Shown here: piece after piece, positions 46,588-54,658 of the stretch | Position numbering within the stretch: position 1 is the stretch's first letter | Layout of the letters: each line of letters opens with the position of its first letter | Origin: Thermoplasmata archaeon | GTDB lineage: Archaea > Thermoplasmatota > Thermoplasmata > RBG-16-68-12 > JAFNFQ01 | NCBI GenBank assembly: GCA_041489255.1 | Contig: JBGPQV010000008.1 | Location: 32,917-96,916 of the forward strand | Length of the DNA stretch: 64,000 bases | Direction of reading: 5' to 3' | Position numbers and translations under genes: made by a program | The notes under the pieces: model-generated | Told to the model about the DNA's origin: nothing | The model's input: only the letters and a program-made list of their open reading frames with translations | Databases searched by the model: none

Positions 46588-47346
46588 CTAACGGGCCGAC
46601 GACGCCACCCGCTCCATCTCCTCCTTCCTCGTGATCGCGGCGGAGCTCATGTCGCCCTTCGCCGCAGCAAGTATCTCGTCGGCCAGGCACTCGTGGATCG
46701 GCTTCACGTTCTTGAAGGAGGACTGTACAGCTCCCTGGCAGATGCTCCTGAGGGCGACGTCGAGCCTGCGGGAGGGTGCTATGTCGACGGCCTTGGGCAC
46801 CGAAATGCCGCCGTACTTCAGGCGGGTGACCTCCTCGCGCGGCGCCGCCTTCTCGAGCGCGTCGACCATGACCTGGATGGGGTTGGCCTTCGCCTTCTTC
46901 TCTATTGATTCCATTGCCATGCGGACCGCCTTGTAGGCCTTCGACTTCTTGCCCGTGTAGACCTCGGTGCGCATCATGTTGTTGATGAAACGCTCGACGA
47001 TGTTCGTCTTCGCCTTTCCGAAGGGCTTGTTCGCATACCTGCCGCCCGTGTGCGGGATGACTATCGGCGTGAGGTTGATGTAGTGGCTGAGCCCCGCGTC
47101 GTGGACCACGACCTCGGAGATGTCCCACCTGTCGAAGATCAGCATCTTCATCGGGGGCTTCTTCTTCGGCTTCTTCTCCTTGACCGGCTTCGCTTCCTTG
47201 GGCTCGCCCTCCGGTGGCGGTGCTTCTCCCTCGGGTGGCGGCGGCGGGGTCGGCTCCTCTGCGGCCTCCGCTGGCGGTGGCGGCGGTGGCGTCTCGGGAG
47301 TCTCTTTGACCTCTCCTTCGACCGCCGGTTTCTCTTCTCCCTCCAT
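46588..47346 (-). CDS. rps7: 30S ribosomal protein S7 with Pro/Glu-rich N-terminal extension
   Basis: PHTGGR, APREEVTR, VDIAPSRRLD, KEEMERVASSAR. Confidence 0.96.
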   Translation of the reverse strand: MEGEEKPAVEGEVKETPETPPPPPPAEAAEEPTPPPPPEGEAPPPEGEPKEAKPVKEKKPKKKPPMKMLIFDRWDISEVVVHDAGLSHYINLTPIVIPHTGGRYANKPFGKAKTNIVERFINNMMRTEVYTGKKSKAYKAVRMAMESIEKKAKANPIQVMVDALEKAAPREEVTRLKYGGISVPKAVDIAPSRRLDVALRSICQGAVQSSFKNVKPIHECLADEILAAAKGDMSSAAITRKEEMERVASSAR

Positions 47347-47351
47347 CTGAC

Positions 47352-47789
47352 TCACCTCACCGGCTTCTCCTTCCTGCCGCGGACGAGCTCGTCCAGGGAA
47401 ACGTCGTTGACCTTGATGACCTTGAACCGCACCCCGGGGATGTCCCCGTAGGACCGCCCCATCCTCCCGCCGATCCCCTCCACGAGGACCTCGTCGTGCT
47501 CGTCGATGAAGTTGATCGCGCCGTCGCCGACGGCGAAGGCGGTGATCTGCCGCCCGTTCTTGATGAGCTGCAGCTTGACGCACTTCCTCAGCGCGGAGTT
47601 GGGCTGCTTCGCCTCTATCGCGACCTTCTCCAGGACTATGCCTTTCGCCTGCGCCGCGCCTTCCAGCGGGTCGGACTTCTCCTTGAGGTGAAGGGCCCGC
47701 CTCTTGTAGTACCTGCTCGACCAGCGATACTTCTGCCGGTCCCGGGAAAGCTTCCTTGCGGCGCCTAGACCTCTAGCCAATACGCTCAC
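47352..47789 (-). CDS. rps12: 30S ribosomal protein S12
   Basis: [20 protein letters not shown]. Confidence 0.98.
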
Positions 47790-47900
47790 TCCATGGGTGG
47801 TGCAGAGTCTAAGTGAGGAGTCCTATTTAAGCGTAATTAATCAGGCCAGGGGACGGGGCTATTGTTGAGAGGCGAGGGACATCGATCGTCCATGCCGTAG

Positions 47901-48460
47901 TTATGGACAAGTATCCACAAGACAGAATGCCAAGCGATGTATCACAATGGTCACATTCGGCCGTGGCGGGTGGGACGCAACTCGCGCGTGTTGTGGATAA
48001 GTATCCACAACTCCAAATGCCCTGCGGTGTGCCGCAGCGGTCGCAAACCACCGTGGCGGGCAAGAGGCCACTTTCGGGTTTTGTGGACAAGTATCCACAA
48101 GTCGGGTCCGCCCGGCCCGAGGAGGCGAGGTCACTTTCACCCCTCCCCCGCCAAGCCGTTCAAGCCGGGTTTGTGGACAAGTATCCACATGGAGATCGGA
48201 TGCGGGCTCGAAGTCCGGAGGGTCAATGGGAAGCGATATGTCTACTTCTGGTCGTACGCGCGAGAGAACGGGAGCAGCAGGAGGAGATGGCGGTACCTGG
48301 GGCCCGCGGGTGCCGATAGAACGAGAAGACGGGCGTTGGAGTCGCTGACCGCCCACTACTCTTCGATCAAGAAGGAGGTGGACAGGAGGTTAGCAGTGAT
48401 GAAGATGAAGGCCTCCGCTCCCTAAGGCGGCAGCGGGCGGTTGTGGATGAGTATCCACAA
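47901..48460. repeat. Five 20-bp palindromes TTGTGGA(C/T)AAGTATCCACAA in 90-bp phase
   Basis: Copies start at 47901, 47991, 48081, 48171 and 48441 (spacings 90, 90, 90, 270). Confidence 0.95.
48189..48425 (+). CDS. 78-aa basic protein resembling the SSV-type integrase N-terminal (ORF D-335-like) / DUF6788-like DNA-binding domain
   Basis: LEVRRVNGKRYVYFWSY..NG..RRRWRYLGP followed by an amphipathic helix; the ATG begins within palindrome 4. Confidence 0.75.
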   Translation: MEIGCGLEVRRVNGKRYVYFWSYARENGSSRRRWRYLGPAGADRTRRRALESLTAHYSSIKKEVDRRLAVMKMKASAP

Positions 48461-49175
48461 GTCGGTCCAATCGTTGCCGCCCCGCCTCGAACGGTCGCGG
48501 CGGGAATCTGAGGAAGAGGTCGAGTGACCCCGTAACGAGCATGCCGACGATGAACTGCTGGACCAGGTAGCCTATGACCGACGAGACGGTGCAGGCGACC
48601 GAGAAGACGATCGCGCTGCCCATCCCGTCCGCCTCGGGGTCCGACTCCCCCCAGAACTTCTTGACGACCCTCTGGCCCCACCATGAGGCGTCCTTGCCGT
48701 AGGTGTCCTGGGTAAGATACGGGTTGACTATGTTGCACCTCATCAGGTGCGCGGAGACCATGTCGAGGATCATCGAGACGATAATCCCCGGATTGGAGAT
48801 CAGATTCCCAATCATCTGGGGGAACTGGCTGATGGCGTTGAACATGTCCCCTATCTGAAGGAATATGGACAGGTCCTCGAACAGTCCCGCCAAGAATCCG
48901 AGGAAGAAACCGAAGACCGCTCCCGCCAACGCTGGTTCGAGGAAGAAGGAGAGGAAGCCCGCCACGAGCTTACCGAGGATGTATGTGAGGCCTCCCCCGG
49001 CGGTCTTCTTCATGACGTTGCCGGCGAAGTCGCAGGCTCCGGCCTCCACCTCGTAGCCCCACATGTAGTCAGACCAGAAGTCTATCTCGAAGGTGGTGCT
49101 GTCCCTGTCATTGCCTCGGTAGATGCCGTTGTGTGTAGCCCAGGAGTCCTTGAATACAAAGGAGATCGCCGTCAC
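48390..49175 (-). pseudogene. Internal fragment of a large secreted protein (Ig-like end + hydrophobic helices)
   Basis: YEVEAGACDFAGN Ig-strand motif, then GAVFGFFLGFLAGLF and further hydrophobic helices; no clear start or natural end. Confidence 0.55.
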
Positions 49176-49272
49176 GCCGGAGCTGTCCTTTCGATTCGAA
49201 GAACGAGGTATTTTCCATTTTGAGCATTGAGCACGTGCTATGAAGGGGAATCGCTTGTTCGAATCGCCTCAC

Positions 49273-49360
49273 ATTCGAACGTTGTTCGACCTTCGTTCGA
49301 CAGGTGTTCGTACCATCCTCGTACCACGCTCGTACCATGTTCGTCAACTGTTCGTTATGG
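49273..49360. repeat. Eight 11-bp tandem units, consensus gtTCGtaccat
   Basis: attcgaacgtt/gttcgaccttc/gttcgacaggt/gttcgtaccat/cctcgtaccac/gctcgtaccat/gttcgtcaact/gttcgttatgg. Confidence 0.85.
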
Positions 49361-49945
49361 ACAGGACGTGCATTCGCATCGAAGATTGCCCGGACCATAC
49401 TCTTACCGACTTGATACCAAGCCCTTAACAACATGAAATCGAACTGGCGAGATGTTCGCGTCCAACACGCTGAGTGTTCGATTGAGACAGAATCACGCCT
49501 GCCATGTTAGGGATGGTTTGAGCCCAACGGGGAAGTCATCAGATGGTTCCAGCCGCGGTCTTGGATGCACATTGTTAAGAGTTGCGAAAGCGGAACCGCT
49601 GAAAGCCCATATCATGAATATGCCCGGAAGCTGATGACAGATGGCAGGCCGACAGGGCCATACCAACACATTGCATCGTGCATTCTGATTGATGAACATG
49701 CCGCTGCGTTGCGTTTGCGAGATGCGCATCTGTCACGTCAAGGACCGTCCTATCAGCTGGAGATTCTCCATCTACTTCACGACTAGCCTAGATGACTGCG
49801 CAAAAACGTAGGCGTTGCCTTTCGCGGGATATGCCCGGCCGAATCGACCGATCTTGCGGGGGATCGACGATTACCGCATCTCCAAGCGCCCAAGAGGGTC
49901 GGTGGAGACGCGGTGGTCGCCGGCTGCGAGTAGGATTCTTGAGGC

Positions 49946-51721
49946 ATGTCCTCGTGCAGGGAGAACGAGGGCATCCGCAATCCCTGTGCCCCATCCTCCC
50001 AGATATATCTTTATTCCACTACCGCCATGACGAGCAACGCGTTCAAGATGCGGCGGTGGGAGATGATTGGCGGATCTCGTTTCGTTCGTGGAGGCCGATT
50101 TGCGGCGGGTCGATATCGCCGAAACGGTGGAAGTCCCAGAGGTTATGGCTGGCCCGCCACCATCGAGCTCCTCTCGCCTCTCGACGCCGCAATCTCAGAT
50201 TCCCGCAATTCCTTCATGATGATCATCTGCCCCTCATGCAGATTCGTTCACGAGGAGGGCGGCATCTGCATCTCCCGCCAATTCGGCGACCTCACGCTGT
50301 GGAACCGCTCCATGAGCCAGGGCGAGATACGTGCCCTCAGCTTCCTGGACAGGGGGCTGAATGGGATAGTCGTGCCGAGAGGGCTGTTCATGCAGTCGCA
50401 GTTCTTCGCGTCGATGAACGACTCCTCGTACGCCAGCTTCGGACCGGGCAACCCGCTCCTCGGCTCGACCGTCATGGGCATCGACAACGCCCGGGAGCTG
50501 AACTCGCGGGTCGTGCAGCAGCTCATAGCCGCCAACCTGACGCTGGCGGAGGCGTGGGCCTGGATCCTCGGGCTGGAGAGGAACTCCACGGGGCAGAACA
50601 CTTCCTTCCCCCTGGTGGTGACGAGGGAGGTCTACACGATAGGCTTCGACCCGATGCTCATGAACGTCCTGCCCAACATGACGGTGGAGAACAGCGGCAA
50701 CAGCTCGCTGCCCGCCCCGCCGACGCGCGTGCCGACCTACTGGGAACTGATGTGGAACTCGTTCACGGGACTCGTCTCGGCGGTGTGGAACGCTGTGGTG
50801 GCGGTTGCCCAGTTCATCGCAAACGTGATGCTGGCGGTGATCAAGTGGGGCATAGGGCTGGCTAAGGCGATTGCCGAGGGGAAGGGGTTGGAGTACATCT
50901 ACGAGACGGTGGTGAAGCCGTTCGTGGAGGCGCTGCTGGCGTTCATACGATTCCTAATTGAATTCTTCAAAGCGATTCTGAATGTCTTATTCACACCGGT
51001 TCGTCTGTTCTTGGAAAGCTTAGGCAGGGCTGTGAGGGATGGGTTCAGGCCGGCCTACAGCCAAATCGAGATGGCAGAGGCGTGCGACATGAATGAAGCG
51101 GGCGACGCAGCTGCCCAAGGGTATGCTGACAGGGCAGCGATGTTGGTTACTGATATCTTCGTCTCGATAATGATGACCGCGATACTGATTTACCTAATAC
51201 TCATGGCTGTCGATGTCACGGTGAAGCCCGTGGCAACTCTCTTGGCGGGAATCGTGATCATGATTGCATTGGGAATGGTGCTCAGTGCGATGGCTATTGC
51301 TGGCTTCAGCGGAGGATATTCCGGACTTCCGCCCGCGCCCGGCGACCCCGGTGGAGCCCCTAATGCGGTCATGGGCATCATCCCGGACGATTATTGGCTT
51401 ACTGAACGTATATTCTCAACGACCCTCCGGTTTTGCGTAACATTGGCGATGCTTATCCTCGACGACCTGAGTGTTCTTGGGGCGATATCCATCACCTTAG
51501 GCGTCGTGAGTCTAGCCCTGATCTTCATTGGTGCGACATTCGACAAGCGAAGCAACGAGGGGCGATGGTTGCTGGCTATCGGCCTTTTCCTAGGATTGCT
51601 ATCTGTCATCCTGGCCACGATTTCCGTGGCGATGCAAGGATTTGGCCTTCACACAGGAGTCGGAATCGCCATGTCGATTGGCGCGTTTGGGATGGCTTAC
51701 CTGAACGTGTTGTCGATGTAG
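49946..51721 (+). CDS. 5'-truncated LamG-linked protein with multi-helical hydrophobic C-terminus (putative toxin cassette)
   Basis: Recognisable sequence begins at DLTLWNRSMSQGEI (LamG C-terminal strand, 50288); amphipathic helices then several TM helices; the first ~115 codons look unrelated. Confidence 0.65.
   Translation: MSSCRENEGIRNPCAPSSQIYLYSTTAMTSNAFKMRRWEMIGGSRFVRGGRFAAGRYRRNGGSPRGYGWPATIELLSPLDAAISDSRNSFMMIICPSCRFVHEEGGICISRQFGDLTLWNRSMSQGEIRALSFLDRGLNGIVVPRGLFMQSQFFASMNDSSYASFGPGNPLLGSTVMGIDNARELNSRVVQQLIAANLTLAEAWAWILGLERNSTGQNTSFPLVVTREVYTIGFDPMLMNVLPNMTVENSGNSSLPAPPTRVPTYWELMWNSFTGLVSAVWNAVVAVAQFIANVMLAVIKWGIGLAKAIAEGKGLEYIYETVVKPFVEALLAFIRFLIEFFKAILNVLFTPVRLFLESLGRAVRDGFRPAYSQIEMAEACDMNEAGDAAAQGYADRAAMLVTDIFVSIMMTAILIYLILMAVDVTVKPVATLLAGIVIMIALGMVLSAMAIAGFSGGYSGLPPAPGDPGGAPNAVMGIIPDDYWLTERIFSTTLRFCVTLAMLILDDLSVLGAISITLGVVSLALIFIGATFDKRSNEGRWLLAIGLFLGLLSVILATISVAMQGFGLHTGVGIAMSIGAFGMAYLNVLSM
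50288..50506 (+). repeat. 219-bp direct repeat, copy 1
   Basis: Colinear, without indels, with 52601-52819; first ~135 nt differ only synonymously. Confidence 0.92.
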
Positions 51722-51741
51722 TGAGGAGAAAGAGATGTCAA

Positions 51742-52278
51742 ATGAATGAGCATGATGATTTGGGAGCCATAGTCTCCGAAGAGAGATTGGTATTCCATCT
51801 CGCTGTCGCAAGCGTGCTCGCAATCGCCGTCATTCTCAGTGGGTGGTTGGCATTCGCTATCCTGCTATATCCTGCCCTCACCCGTGCGTTTTCAGGAGGT
51901 GATCCATGGGGTGGAAACAATCCTCTTGGAATCGTCTTGGGCTTTCTGGCAAGTCTGTATGGCTTCATCTTGAGTGTCGCTGCGTTATCCTATAAGAGAC
52001 GCGCGAGGATCTACTGGGCGGGAATATCCCCGTCTTGGATCCCGCCCGGAAAGAGATCAAAGAGATACTGGCCTTTTTCTGAAATCAATGATTTGGAATT
52101 GACCGTCAGAGAAGATGGATTCTGGGTGGTTCGCTTCGCCTTGGAGTTGAAGGGTCCGTTGAGGTGGATTCTGCCGATTCGTCCGAACAAGGAAATCCTC
52201 AGCAGACCCATGATGACCAAAGCCGGATTCGCACTCGCCCATTTGAGGTCGCGTGGAATTCGGGAACGAAGAGCGTAG
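51742..52278 (+). CDS. 2-TM protein with soluble C-terminal domain (immunity-like)
   Basis: GTGAGGAG RBS, starts 20 nt after the upstream stop; two TM helices followed by a beta-rich domain. Confidence 0.75.
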   Translation: MNEHDDLGAIVSEERLVFHLAVASVLAIAVILSGWLAFAILLYPALTRAFSGGDPWGGNNPLGIVLGFLASLYGFILSVAALSYKRRARIYWAGISPSWIPPGKRSKRYWPFSEINDLELTVREDGFWVVRFALELKGPLRWILPIRPNKEILSRPMMTKAGFALAHLRSRGIRERRA

Positions 52279-52427
52279 GATTCAACCCATGCCGCATCAT
52301 TCAGAAATCGTGCGCGATAGGGGAGGAGAATACGGCCACTCCCTATTAGCCAAACGGCTTGACAACGATTCGCGAAAGCAAGTGGCCCCTAGTCTGAACT
52401 TGATTTCCGATGTACGGGTCGCATTGA

Positions 52428-52837
52428 ACCAGTGGCACGTCGTCACGCTTACATACGACGGACAGATTTCCACGGTCTATCTGGACGGCGAGAAGATACA
52501 CTCGAAGACGTGGGAGCAGGCATGGTTGCCGCACCCGTCGGACCCGTACCTCTGCGTCTTCAACGGGGCGGGCGCCTCGCCCTTCAACGGCTACATCGAC
52601 GATCTGACGCTCTGGAACCGCTCCATGAGCCAGGGAGAGATACGCGCCCTCAGCTTCCTGGACAGGGGGCTGAACGGGATCGTCGTGCCGAGAGGGTTGT
52701 TCATGCAGTCGCAGTTCTTCGCGTCGATGAACTCCTCCACCGGTTCCGTCGTCCACTTGGGCAACCCACTCCCCGGTTCGACGACCACGGGCAATGACAA
52801 CTCGCGCGAGCTGAACTCGACCTTGTGCAGTTATTGA
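52428..52837 (+). pseudogene. Orphan LamG (concanavalin A-like) domain fragment
   Basis: NQWHVVTLTYDG..VYLDG..FNGYIDDLTLWNRSMSQGEI; truncated at both ends. Confidence 0.8.
52601..52819 (+). repeat. 219-bp direct repeat, copy 2
   Basis: Same peptide as 50288-50506 up to FFASMN, then divergent but alignable to RELNS. Confidence 0.92.
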
Positions 52838-52983
52838 TGAGGTACATCTAACCAAAGTCGTCTATCGTCGGCCTACCGATTGTCCCCTGGCATGGCGGGA
52901 ATACACTTCTTTCGATTCGGATTCTTCCTACAAACCCGTAGCAGAGAAAGACTCTTTTCGCGGGCTGTCGTCAAATCACGCGT

Positions 52984-53514
52984 CTACGCTATTGATCCGT
53001 CATCCAGCTGCTTGATGATCGACCTACCCTGCATCGTGATGTTGTAGATGTGCGGCGGCACACCGCGCCTTATCGCCCTGGACTTCTCCTTGCTGACCAG
53101 CTGCAGGACCTCCAGGACCCTCAGGTGGTTGTAGAGGCCGGGCTCAGACAGGCCCAGCTCCTCAGACAGTTCCACGACAGTGCAGTCGGGGTTCGCCGCG
53201 AGGAACTCGAGAATAGCCTTCTTGCTCTCGCTGAGAGCTTCTGTGGTCGTCATCTTGGTGGGCTTGGTCGGCTCGAGCGTGAGCCTCTCGTAGATCCTCG
53301 TGCCCTTCTCAGAAGGACTGATGATAACACTGACCAGCTCGTTCTCCTCCGCCTTGATCAGGTGGCGGTAGACCGCTTCCGGAGCGATCCCCAGCATTTC
53401 CGCGAGCTCGGGGATCTGCGTGTCGCGGTTCTTGAAGAGCTTGTTCTCGACAACGATTTCAAGGACCTCGCGTTGTCGTTCTGTCAGCCCTCTTACCTCG
53501 TCGACTGCAATCAT
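52984..53514 (-). CDS. Tandem HTH/ArsR-like wHTH transcriptional regulator
   Basis: LTERQREVL..IPELAEMLGIAPEAVYRHL and TVVELSEELGLSEPGLYNHLRVLE..YNITMQG. Confidence 0.85.
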   Translation of the reverse strand: MIAVDEVRGLTERQREVLEIVVENKLFKNRDTQIPELAEMLGIAPEAVYRHLIKAEENELVSVIISPSEKGTRIYERLTLEPTKPTKMTTTEALSESKKAILEFLAANPDCTVVELSEELGLSEPGLYNHLRVLEVLQLVSKEKSRAIRRGVPPHIYNITMQGRSIIKQLDDGSIA

Positions 53515-53587
53515 GCCTAGTAGATTAGGGCGGTAGCTCTTAAAGCTTCACGGCTAGAATGCCAATCCGCGACTATCACTCGCGTTA

Positions 53588-54658
53588 TTACGCGTACTGA
53601 TAGATATTGTCAGGGAGGCGGCCCTTGTTGAACTCCTCTTCCAACTCCTCGAGCATCAGTATGCGCTTGTACGTCGGGGGATGCGTCGAGAACAGCTCGT
53701 TCGCCTTGGTCCAGTGACTCTTCGCCTCGTGCTCCATCGCCTTTCTCAGCTCGAACTCATCGATCTCCCCGTCCTTGTTGAGGTCGTACTCCGCCATCTT
53801 GTCCTTCAGGAGTGCGGCGTCCTCACTCGCCTTGACGGGGTCCCCGATGAAGAACGCGCGCAGGCCGCTCGGCTCCTTCTCGGCGGGTGTGAGTGAGAGC
53901 CCGTAGGCGATCTTGACCAGGGCGGACCTGAGGTAGCGGGGGCTTCCGGTCGCGGCAGCGGAATACGCGTCCGCATAGTACTCCCTCGTCCTCGAGAGAT
54001 GCAGCACGAGAAGCTGCGTGATGAAGTAGACGAAGTAGGATATCAAGGCGACCGCCAAGGCCGCTGCGATGGCCCCTCCCTTGTCCTTCGAGCTCCTGCC
54101 GCCGCTACTCGCGCGGATCATCACCAAGCCTCCCCTCGCGATTATGTAGGCGACGATGGGGATCGCGGACACGAGAGTCATGGTGATCACGTCGCCGTGC
54201 CTCAGGTGCCCTATCTCGTGCGCGATGACGCCCTCTATCTCCTGCTTGTTGAGGCGCTCGAGCAGGCCGCTGTGGAGGACCAGCTCTGATGAGCGTATCG
54301 TCCTCCCGAAGACGAACGCGTTCGGTGTCGGGTCCTCTATCACCGCGACCTTGGGCATCGGGACCTGCGCCTTTGCGGCGAGGCTCTGCACCGTGTCGTA
54401 GAGCCACGGGTTGTCCTGCCTCTGGATATAGTACTTGATATGCGCCGCCCACCGCACGATCGCAGGGGAGATCAGCCACTGCAGGAAGATGAAGCCAACG
54501 CAGACGAGGACCAGTACGACGAGCCCGAACGGGAAGAAGTCCAGGTCGAGGAAGTAGTCGATCACCGCCACGATGCCAAGGAGGAACAGCGAGAACATCG
54601 TGAGGAGCAGTATCACCGTCGCCTCGGAGCCGCGCCTCAGCTTTCCCAACGAGCCCAT
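53588..54658 (-). CDS. htpX: Zinc metalloprotease HtpX (M48) with EF-hand-like insert
   Basis: PNAFVFG, HEIGH, REYYAD, STHPP; DLNKDGEIDEFE. Confidence 0.93.
   Translation of the reverse strand: MGSLGKLRRGSEATVILLLTMFSLFLLGIVAVIDYFLDLDFFPFGLVVLVLVCVGFIFLQWLISPAIVRWAAHIKYYIQRQDNPWLYDTVQSLAAKAQVPMPKVAVIEDPTPNAFVFGRTIRSSELVLHSGLLERLNKQEIEGVIAHEIGHLRHGDVITMTLVSAIPIVAYIIARGGLVMIRASSGGRSSKDKGGAIAAALAVALISYFVYFITQLLVLHLSRTREYYADAYSAAATGSPRYLRSALVKIAYGLSLTPAEKEPSGLRAFFIGDPVKASEDAALLKDKMAEYDLNKDGEIDEFELRKAMEHEAKSHWTKANELFSTHPPTYKRILMLEELEEEFNKGRLPDNIYQYA

Follow-up and report, generated by a model that had tools for sequence, protein, structure and literature searches.

A palindrome-bracketed family of small basic proteins in Thermoplasmata, most likely a new group of autoregulating DNA binders

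In a contig of a Thermoplasmata archaeon (GenBank assembly GCA_041489255.1, contig JBGPQV010000008.1), a stretch of 64,000 nt, referred to here as the window and numbered from its first base, contains five copies of a 20-bp palindrome, four of them upstream of a gene for a basic protein of 78 amino acids and the fifth just past its stop codon. The gene belongs to an unnamed family in which the palindrome beside the gene is constant inside a protein clade and different between clades. Judged from sequence comparison, this module of gene and palindromes is real, conserved and so far undescribed, and it most likely represents a new family of autoregulating DNA binders. We give about an even chance to the specific reading that the product is a small sequence-specific DNA binder, probably dimeric, that represses its own promoter through cognate operators. 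Literature searches, which did not extend to supplementary motif tables, found no description of the family or its layout, and the original prediction for this stretch likewise knew of no described system with this arrangement.

The palindrome array and the gene it encloses

The 20-mer TTGTGGAyrAGTATCCACAa (TTGTGGATAAGTATCCACAA) was found on the + strand at 47901, 47991, 48081, 48171 and 48441, with steps of 90, 90, 90 and 270 nt between copies and a 78-codon frame inside the last gap, all as originally predicted, and nowhere else in the 64,000 bases, where 0.01 matches are expected by chance (100 shuffles). Further matches to the 20-mer were weaker reverse-strand readings of three of these five sites, and since the reverse-strand reading was always poorer than that of the + strand, the AG centre stands in a single orientation. 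Copy 1 (TTATGGACAAGTATCCACAA; 47901..47920), the farthest upstream, has two mismatches to the consensus, copy 2 (47991..48010) is a perfect 9+2+9 palindrome with none, and copy 3 (48081..48100) has one. Copy 4 (48171..48190), the promoter-proximal copy and candidate operator, has two mismatches, and its last two bases are the AT of the ATG start codon, a placement kept in the orthologous locus L066. Copy 5 (48441..48460), with one mismatch, lies 15 nt past the stop codon and within the 3′ tail of a convergent open-reading frame (ORF; 48390-49175). The copies differ mainly at positions 8 and 9 beside the centre, in addition to position 3 in copy 1 and position 20 in copy 4. A likeness of the arms to the bacterial DnaA box had been pointed out, and the reverse strand of copy 2 does contain the nonamer, but this is a coincidence in an archaeal host, the arms of other clades being unrelated to it. 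The window is archaeal by its aEF-2 and its S7 of archaeal/eukaryotic type, and archaea are not known to have DnaA.

The three 70-nt spacers (47921..48170, + strand) had been described as related to each other, which was clear for spacers 1 and 2 (score 25, reached by 0/500 shuffles, which averaged 13.4 and peaked at 22), marginal for spacers 2 and 3 (p=0.038) and not found for spacers 1 and 3 (p=0.22). Units 1 and 2 share 70% identity across all 90 nt. Spacer 3 holds an intact copy of an upstream box that recurs across the family and is described below, while spacers 1 and 2 each hold a decayed box-like block, so each 90-bp unit combines a palindrome with a box block, making the array a tandem duplication of a regulatory unit. 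By these comparisons, the exact 90-bp phase is a trait of the window lineage that arose by tandem duplication; it holds in the window and in L066 but not in the family, where other offsets occur. Tandem Repeats Finder did not report the array. Decayed copies of the 78-aa gene were considered as a source of the 90-bp units and rejected, the spacers matching the gene at chance level (p = 0.50, 0.17 and 0.96). The array is also not CRISPR, as had been argued: spacers 1 and 2 resemble each other, a gene occupies one "spacer" of 250 nt, and no Cas protein was found in the 63 ORFs scanned in the window.

The gene itself (48189..48425, + strand) was assigned from its homologues, the searches described here and a structural model. 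Its frame runs from the ATG at 48189, overlapping copy 4, to the stop codon at 48423-48425; in a mechanical ORF list the frame begins at 47937, and the start was set at M-E-I-G-C-G from the homologues. The protein has a pI of 10.9 and a net charge of +12 (median pI of the family, 10.1), and it gave no match in Pfam (0 families at E<=1), NCBIfam or PHROGs. An exhaustive search of 1.84 billion representatives returned 73 clusters (50% identity) at E<=1e-3, 17 of them at E<=1e-10, mostly of 70-120 aa; five long repetitive proteins among the matches look spurious. The family signature is M-x-[VIL]-G-C-G, G-x-x-Y-[LV]-Y-F-W-x-Y-E and Y-[VIL]-G-[PR], followed by a long helix, and its members are named "hypothetical protein" throughout the source records. 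A word-indexed search returned two near relatives at 92% and 87% identity, both with over-long N-termini that render the palindrome as LWISIH; in P0002 two LWISIH copies lie exactly 30 residues apart, and the palindrome and the 90-nt step are therefore retained in a relative at 87% identity. A protein atlas placed the protein among unnamed Thermoplasmatota clusters only, the nearest named family, DUF6788 (at 0.85), being a mere lead for which the literature yielded no paper mentioning DUF6788. The only longer protein matching the family profile was one 234-aa singleton (weak evidence), no fused form, for example with an integrase, was found in the profile search, and the window holds a single family member. 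A 107-aa relative, P0074, contains the beta-sheet module twice in tandem without the long helix. Locus L066 comes from a near-identical strain with an rps12 100% identical to that of the window, and its ORF differs at 11 places, of which 4 are replacements, 6 are silent and 1 exchanges the stop codon. This pattern of differences, together with the 73 clusters, indicates that the 78-aa ORF is a genuine gene of an unnamed family.

The AlphaFold2 model of the protein (39-row alignment, pLDDT 92.5) has three strands (residues 5-12, 15-26 and 29-39) and a single helix (43-76). The sequence and structure search proposed in the original prediction thus led to an unnamed family but to no named family or fold: fold searches of PDB and BFVD gave no match at E<=1e-3, a PDB sequence profile gave nothing under E 0.35, and Pfam searches of 39 members at E<=10 found no family in common. 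The suggestion that the protein resembles the N-terminal domain of SSV-type integrases was not borne out, as no Pfam family or fold match points to it, one of the 39 members gave a weak match to Arm-DNA-bind_5 (E 0.063), and neither fusion nor adjacency to an integrase was seen. Arm-type and AP2-like integrase domains, as generally described, resemble the family in having three antiparallel strands followed by a helix and a G..Y.Y....G+....Y.G-like pattern, but none appears in the fold-search lists. A homodimer prediction (score 0.29, mark 0.42) carries no weight either way.

Palindromes across the protein family

Genome contigs were scanned with a degenerate DNA pattern for G-C-G ... Y-x-Y-F-W, giving at least 119 loci. 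Among the listed loci at least 109 contain a family ORF, and a further 10, all bacterial and lacking an ORF, matched by chance. The at least 109 family loci come from at least 43 assemblies labelled Thermoplasmata, Thermoplasmatota or Methanobacteriota, with up to at least five loci per assembly; the locus counts below refer to the matches listed, and 102 loci were evaluable for the downstream copy and the box. By a strict test (arms of at least 7 pairs with at most 1 mismatch, within 110 nt upstream), 106 of 110 loci have an inverted repeat upstream of the start, forming a palindrome of 20-22 bp; among these, the repeats chosen for L018, which lies at a contig edge, and for L054 are doubtful. 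The remaining four loci (L011, L019, L072 and L074) contain degenerate copies of the palindrome of their own clade. A protein tree combined with the anatomy of the sites showed that the palindrome sequence is constant inside a protein clade and different between clades. It reads TTGTGGAyrAGTATCCACAA in the window, ATACCTCTACTTAGAGGTAT in clade A and CTACCTCTrAACAGAGGTAG in clade B, and unlettered clades have GTTAACCTTAAGTAAGGTTAAC, GTTATrGTTAAATAACyATAAC, GTTACCCTTAAGTAAGGGTAAC, GTTATCGTTAAATAACGATAAC, GTTAyCACCAAACGGTGGTAAC or GTTAACCTTGTTTAAGGTTAAC. Protein residues 2 and 7-10 vary in step with the palindrome arms: clades A and B have the arms TACCTCT and the residues RVR in common, and the GTTA-type clades have Q2 and K10 in common. 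The comparison strongly supports the protein with its cognate site put forward in the original prediction, and where homologues might have lacked flanking palindromes, they carry them, matched to the clade.

A downstream copy with the same outer arms was present in 60 of the 102 evaluable loci, 254-334 nt downstream and at or just past the stop codon, independent of the orientation of the next gene. In clade A, this copy codes for the C-terminal H-T-S-T-stop. Additional upstream copies are confined, among the loci listed, to the wider clade of the window, where their offsets from the promoter-proximal copy are -90, -180 and -270 in the window and L066, -79, -137 and -215 in L049, -79 and -140 in L044, -89 and -138 in L089, and -89 and -137 in L107, with single extra copies at -84 in L067, -96 in L061 and -93 in L084. 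The arrays of the window and L066 show 9 differences in 288 nt, with the variation in the palindromes mostly at the centre-proximal positions 8-9. Over a longer comparison of these two strains (47300-48660), rps12 and its promoter show 1 difference in ~600 nt, and the array and small gene 20 in ~525 nt; either the module evolves much faster than its rps12 neighbour or it was exchanged. In the assembly that holds both L014 and L066, a further locus, L022, has a family gene that ends after 23 codons behind an intact L014-type palindrome and is probably a decaying paralogue.

Linkage of the palindromes to the family gene was counted in 888,119 nt of window and loci, a sample centred on family genes, with dispersed genomic copies possible. 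Matches within 450 nt of a family gene made up 9/9 of the window type, 15/15 of the GTTAACC type, 17/17 of the GTTATrG type and 78/85 of the TACCTC type. Additional cognate palindromes lying kilobases away were seen in L048 (1169, 2117 and 2431), L057 (261, 523, 3111 and 6081) and L052 (1449 and 4134), where they bracket neighbouring genes too.

The arrangement of box, palindrome, gene and palindrome might be, or derive from, a small selfish element of the REP/RAYT or IS200 kind whose protein moves or copies the palindromes, which we regard as improbable. The cognate palindromes do flank the gene in the same orientation, with several classes per genome, and the downstream palindrome marks an abrupt end to the similarity of non-syntenic paralogues; a few isolated copies occur in gaps between convergent genes, the unit is tandemly duplicated in the window, and the module occurs in every orientation relative to its neighbours. 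These features recall the REP/RAYT systems as portrayed in the relevant passages of PMC3116915, where the RAYT gene is flanked by its own REP class and REPIN tandem clusters include flanking sequence, and in 10.1101/2022.05.22.493013 and 10.1101/2021.07.10.451892; a single-copy gene flanked by its own palindrome class, several classes per genome, mostly vertical inheritance at stable sites and tandem clusters that take in the flanks are common to both. However, Pfam found no tyrosine (HUH/Y1) or other transposase domain and no integrase domain in the protein, which is half the size of the REP/RAYT protein, has archaeal hosts and, with 78 aa forming three strands and a helix, falls short of the size of any known recombinase fold. 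Unlike the dispersed copies of REP/RAYT systems, nearly all palindromes in the 888 kb (a gene-centred sample) stand close to a family gene, the other 63 kb of the window has none, the neighbours are housekeeping genes that are syntenic inside orthologue groups, and collections of phages and plasmids gave no match. Recombination sites defining a gene cassette, one of the three roles suggested originally, found no support either, as no integrase or transposase lies beside the loci examined and the spacers are not decayed genes.

Promoter elements and mode of action

An upstream box, WTTCGSNCACCYC, scored above the 95% shuffle threshold in 82 of the 102 evaluable loci, in gene orientation and at fixed distances. 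In the window it reads TTTCACCCCTCCC (48135..48147, + strand; score 11.0 against a 95% shuffle threshold of 7.0) and ends 41 nt before the ATG, the corresponding distance being 38-41 nt in the GTTA-type clades, 50-54 nt in clade A, 51-64 nt in clade B and 52-63 nt in the GTTATCG clade. Between box and palindrome in the window lies GTTCAAGCC (48158..48166, + strand), a candidate core-promoter element centred ~27 nt before the ATG, and clades A and B have a GGTTCA(A/T)-like sequence at the matching place; in leaderless transcripts, the TATA box is usually found at about this distance from the start codon. The upstream palindrome of the GTTA-type clades is itself centred ~25 nt before the ATG, and of 19 such loci, 14 have a more AT-rich centre in this copy than in the downstream one and 5 have centres of equal AT content, with no locus showing the reverse. 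From these positions, the promoter-proximal palindrome is presumed to overlap the core promoter or start site. The AT-rich tract that the original prediction placed beside the array is present (47821..47845, no strand assigned) and identical in L066; within it, TTAAATAG (47823-47830, - strand), ~37 nt before the GTG of rps12, is likely the rps12 TATA box, and TAATTAAT (47834-47841) could be a rightward TATA. A sigma-70 promoter and terminator scan gave nothing useful, its model not being applicable to archaea.

As the box is common to paralogues with differing palindromes, a shared factor should read it, and at least one common factor acting at these loci is also what one would expect if the palindromes were bound by some other factor, or were merely a promoter or terminator motif, with the job of the small protein unrelated. 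We give this explanation very little credence, since a common factor fails to explain palindromes that track the protein clade and differ between paralogues of one genome. A cognate site at the gene's own promoter that co-varies with the protein, as expected of an autoregulated operator binder, was found by sequence comparison, and among the three roles suggested for the array originally, that of an autoregulated operator array fits best. Such a protein would probably act as a dimer, because the site is symmetric and its variable positions lie near the centre. Its targets would be the palindromes around its own gene, with the beta sheet and an N-terminal arm reading the outer arms TTGTGGA/TCCACAA and the long helix pairing two subunits. 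At copy 4, between the box and TATA-position element on one side and the start codon on the other, bound protein would block transcription initiation, giving negative autoregulation. Copy 5, past the stop codon, could serve as a second anchoring point, allowing a loop over the gene or forming a roadblock that stops read-through, and copies 1-3 may be extra operators, derived from tandem duplication of the 90-bp unit, that act as cooperative or decoy sites.

A possible but unlikely alternative is that the protein acts on RNA, with the palindromes transcribed as 5′ and 3′ hairpins of its small mRNA through which it controls its own translation or mRNA stability; if transcription begins at the AT-rich tract, where TAATTAAT offers a possible rightward TATA, the long leader would contain a string of hairpins. 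The presence of palindromes at both ends of the coding region fits this, as do the single-strand nucleic-acid binders among the weak top fold matches, and the A of the start codon would be base-paired within the stem of copy 4. The clade A palindrome places its right arm, AGAGGTA, 2-6 nt ahead of the ATG, where it resembles a Shine-Dalgarno ribosome-binding site, and the left arm mimics the complement. However, mismatches within the arms comprise 23 G.T/T.G, 48 A.C/C.A and 37 others (67 distinct upstream and 46 distinct downstream copies, not independent), and with no G.T excess, nothing here points to selection acting on a sense-strand RNA hairpin. Folding of the array is unexceptional against its shuffles (z = -1.44, with 7/100 shuffles folding equally well), Rfam found only three tRNAs in the window and 12 loci, all distant from the array, and the 2-nt centre is too short for a loop, so that inner pairs would need opening. 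The upstream copy of the GTTA type has a TATA-like centre at the TATA position, a DNA-level feature. Taken together, the mismatch spectrum, the folding and the Rfam result lean to DNA rather than RNA as the target.

Several observations weigh against the reading of the protein as a DNA-binding autorepressor. No search ties it to any known DNA-binding family, and its top PDB fold matches, PC4/Sub1 and Pur-alpha (weak, at E 0.09-0.3 and TM 0.27-0.36), are single-strand binders. An ordinary repressor needs no site past its stop codon, and the downstream copy is missing in 42 of the 102 loci; where the palindrome directly adjoins the ATG, as it does in the window and in clade A, it could equally be a 5′ RNA hairpin. 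The box WTTCGSNCACCYC differs from a canonical TATA, and CTATAAAGG-like boxes occur at neighbouring genes of these loci, which makes the promoter assignment weak. Over the short distance that separates the window from L066, conservation is no higher in the palindromes (3 differences in 80 nt) than in the spacers (6 in 208 nt). The few copies far from a family gene are intergenic, several falling between the ends of convergent genes, and with no pattern in neighbour orientation and no conserved neighbour, no target gene can be named. Finally, the locus counts are not independent, many of the loci being orthologues.

Genomic neighbourhood, related systems and significance

The divergent neighbour of the array is rps12 (47352..47789, - strand; Ribosom_S12_S23, E 1.4e-46), and rps12, S7 and aEF-2 lie to the left of the array. 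A Pfam scan of the window covered 63 ORFs, some of them without any match. Across the loci listed, no conserved partner gene was found; the neighbours are housekeeping genes shared inside orthologue groups only, among them a class I tRNA synthetase, thiolase, CDP-archaeol synthase, a diphthamide synthesis protein, an HflX-like GTPase, QueC, SAM synthetase, DNA ligase and a KaiC-like ATPase. By mechanical ORFs, 65 loci have a divergent and 38 a co-directional upstream neighbour, and 57 have a convergent and 43 a co-directional downstream neighbour. No integrase, transposase, Orc1/Cdc6, Cas protein or partition NTPase was found among the window ORFs or beside the loci examined.

The modules might instead be chromosomal landmarks, such as accessory origins, segregation sites or boundary sites, with the small protein as their dedicated binder, and an origin- or centromere-like array had been among the original suggestions. 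An array of phased sites does adjoin the gene of its presumed binder, the sites bracket transcription units in some loci, and one clade has, 87-114 nt from the module, an element that fits the ORB consensus given in the genome replication section and Table 2 of PMC4153887. We nevertheless consider a landmark role highly improbable. The window has no ORB-like element, with 0 matches to this printed consensus at <=3 mismatches and no loose match, and neither an Orc1/Cdc6 nor a partition NTPase is among its 63 ORFs. The cumulative GC skew is noisy and uninformative, dipping shallowly near 46-48 kb with no clear switch at the array, and the phase of the sites is not constant between clades. Repeated dyads by the gene of a presumed binder, with an AT-rich tract near, are in keeping with archaeal origins that have ORB elements beside orc1/cdc6, as the same part of PMC4153887 presents them, but the palindrome is unrelated to the consensus given there, and the AT-rich tract is better read as the rps12 promoter.

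The elements near-matching the Methanomassiliicoccales ORB consensus in that part of PMC4153887 belong to the GTTAACCTTAAGTAAGGTTAAC clade and stand just upstream of the module. They lie 87-114 nt before the family gene in L019, L038, L056, L063, L072, L081, L112 and L114 and ~780 nt before it in L054 and L074, and most of these loci have a second, inverted ORB-like element ~2.4 kb farther upstream. In L063 this second element is inside a GcvT-like ORF, and the 8 kb of this locus contain no Orc1/Cdc6.

Other parts of the window show features of their own. The S7 ORF (46588-47583, - strand) has a long Pro/Glu/Lys-rich stretch ahead of its domain, which matches from residue 141; the ORF overlaps the end of rps12, so its true start is probably farther in, with a low-complexity N-terminal extension still left. 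Between 48000 and 54000, the G+C content is ~0.57 compared with ~0.61 on either side, and this stretch contains two large predicted membrane proteins without a family match. In many archaea a longer operon lies upstream of rps12, and here it is interrupted by the 48000-54000 stretch. A tandem repeat with an 11-nt or 22-nt unit (~3.3 copies) was found at 49283-49355, between two predicted membrane-protein genes.

Among known systems, the ribbon-helix-helix (RHH) autorepressors Arc, CopG and MetJ resemble the module in having a very small basic protein with a beta-sheet reading head (likely here), a palindromic operator at the gene's own promoter and many paralogues, each with its own operator. 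Unlike the strand-helix-helix of these proteins, the family model has three strands and one long helix, and no RHH family appeared in the Pfam and PDB searches; operators that bracket the whole gene in most loci and a family-wide upstream box are further differences. The plasmid partition centromere-binding proteins ParR, ParG and omega are small proteins with a phased repeat array beside their gene and expected autoregulation, but the modules described here have no adjacent NTPase of the ParA/ParM type, are chromosomal, occur as several paralogues per genome and have mostly one or two sites.

The modules could also be orthogonal cassettes of a protein plus its private palindrome, in several versions per genome and under a common non-canonical promoter box read by a shared factor, either as the archaeal counterpart of a domesticated replicator of the REP/RAYT type or as chromosomal landmarks. 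We think this broader interpretation quite unlikely; as replicators, the cassettes would be built on a new minimal DNA-binding fold, and as landmarks they would mark boundary, segregation or origin-accessory sites. If the preferred reading of an autoregulating binder is true, the family would be a new archaeal group of sequence-specific nucleic-acid binders with a fold that no library recognises, and its ~10 protein clades with matching palindromes would provide material for the recognition code of a minimal beta-sheet reader. Sites that bracket the gene, a box common to paralogues and arrays formed by unit duplication are unusual for a simple repressor, and these three features may indicate an undescribed function in Thermoplasmata, a class with almost no experimental genetics. 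Even if the protein is merely an autorepressor, the family would still be a compact set of orthogonal repressor-operator pairs.

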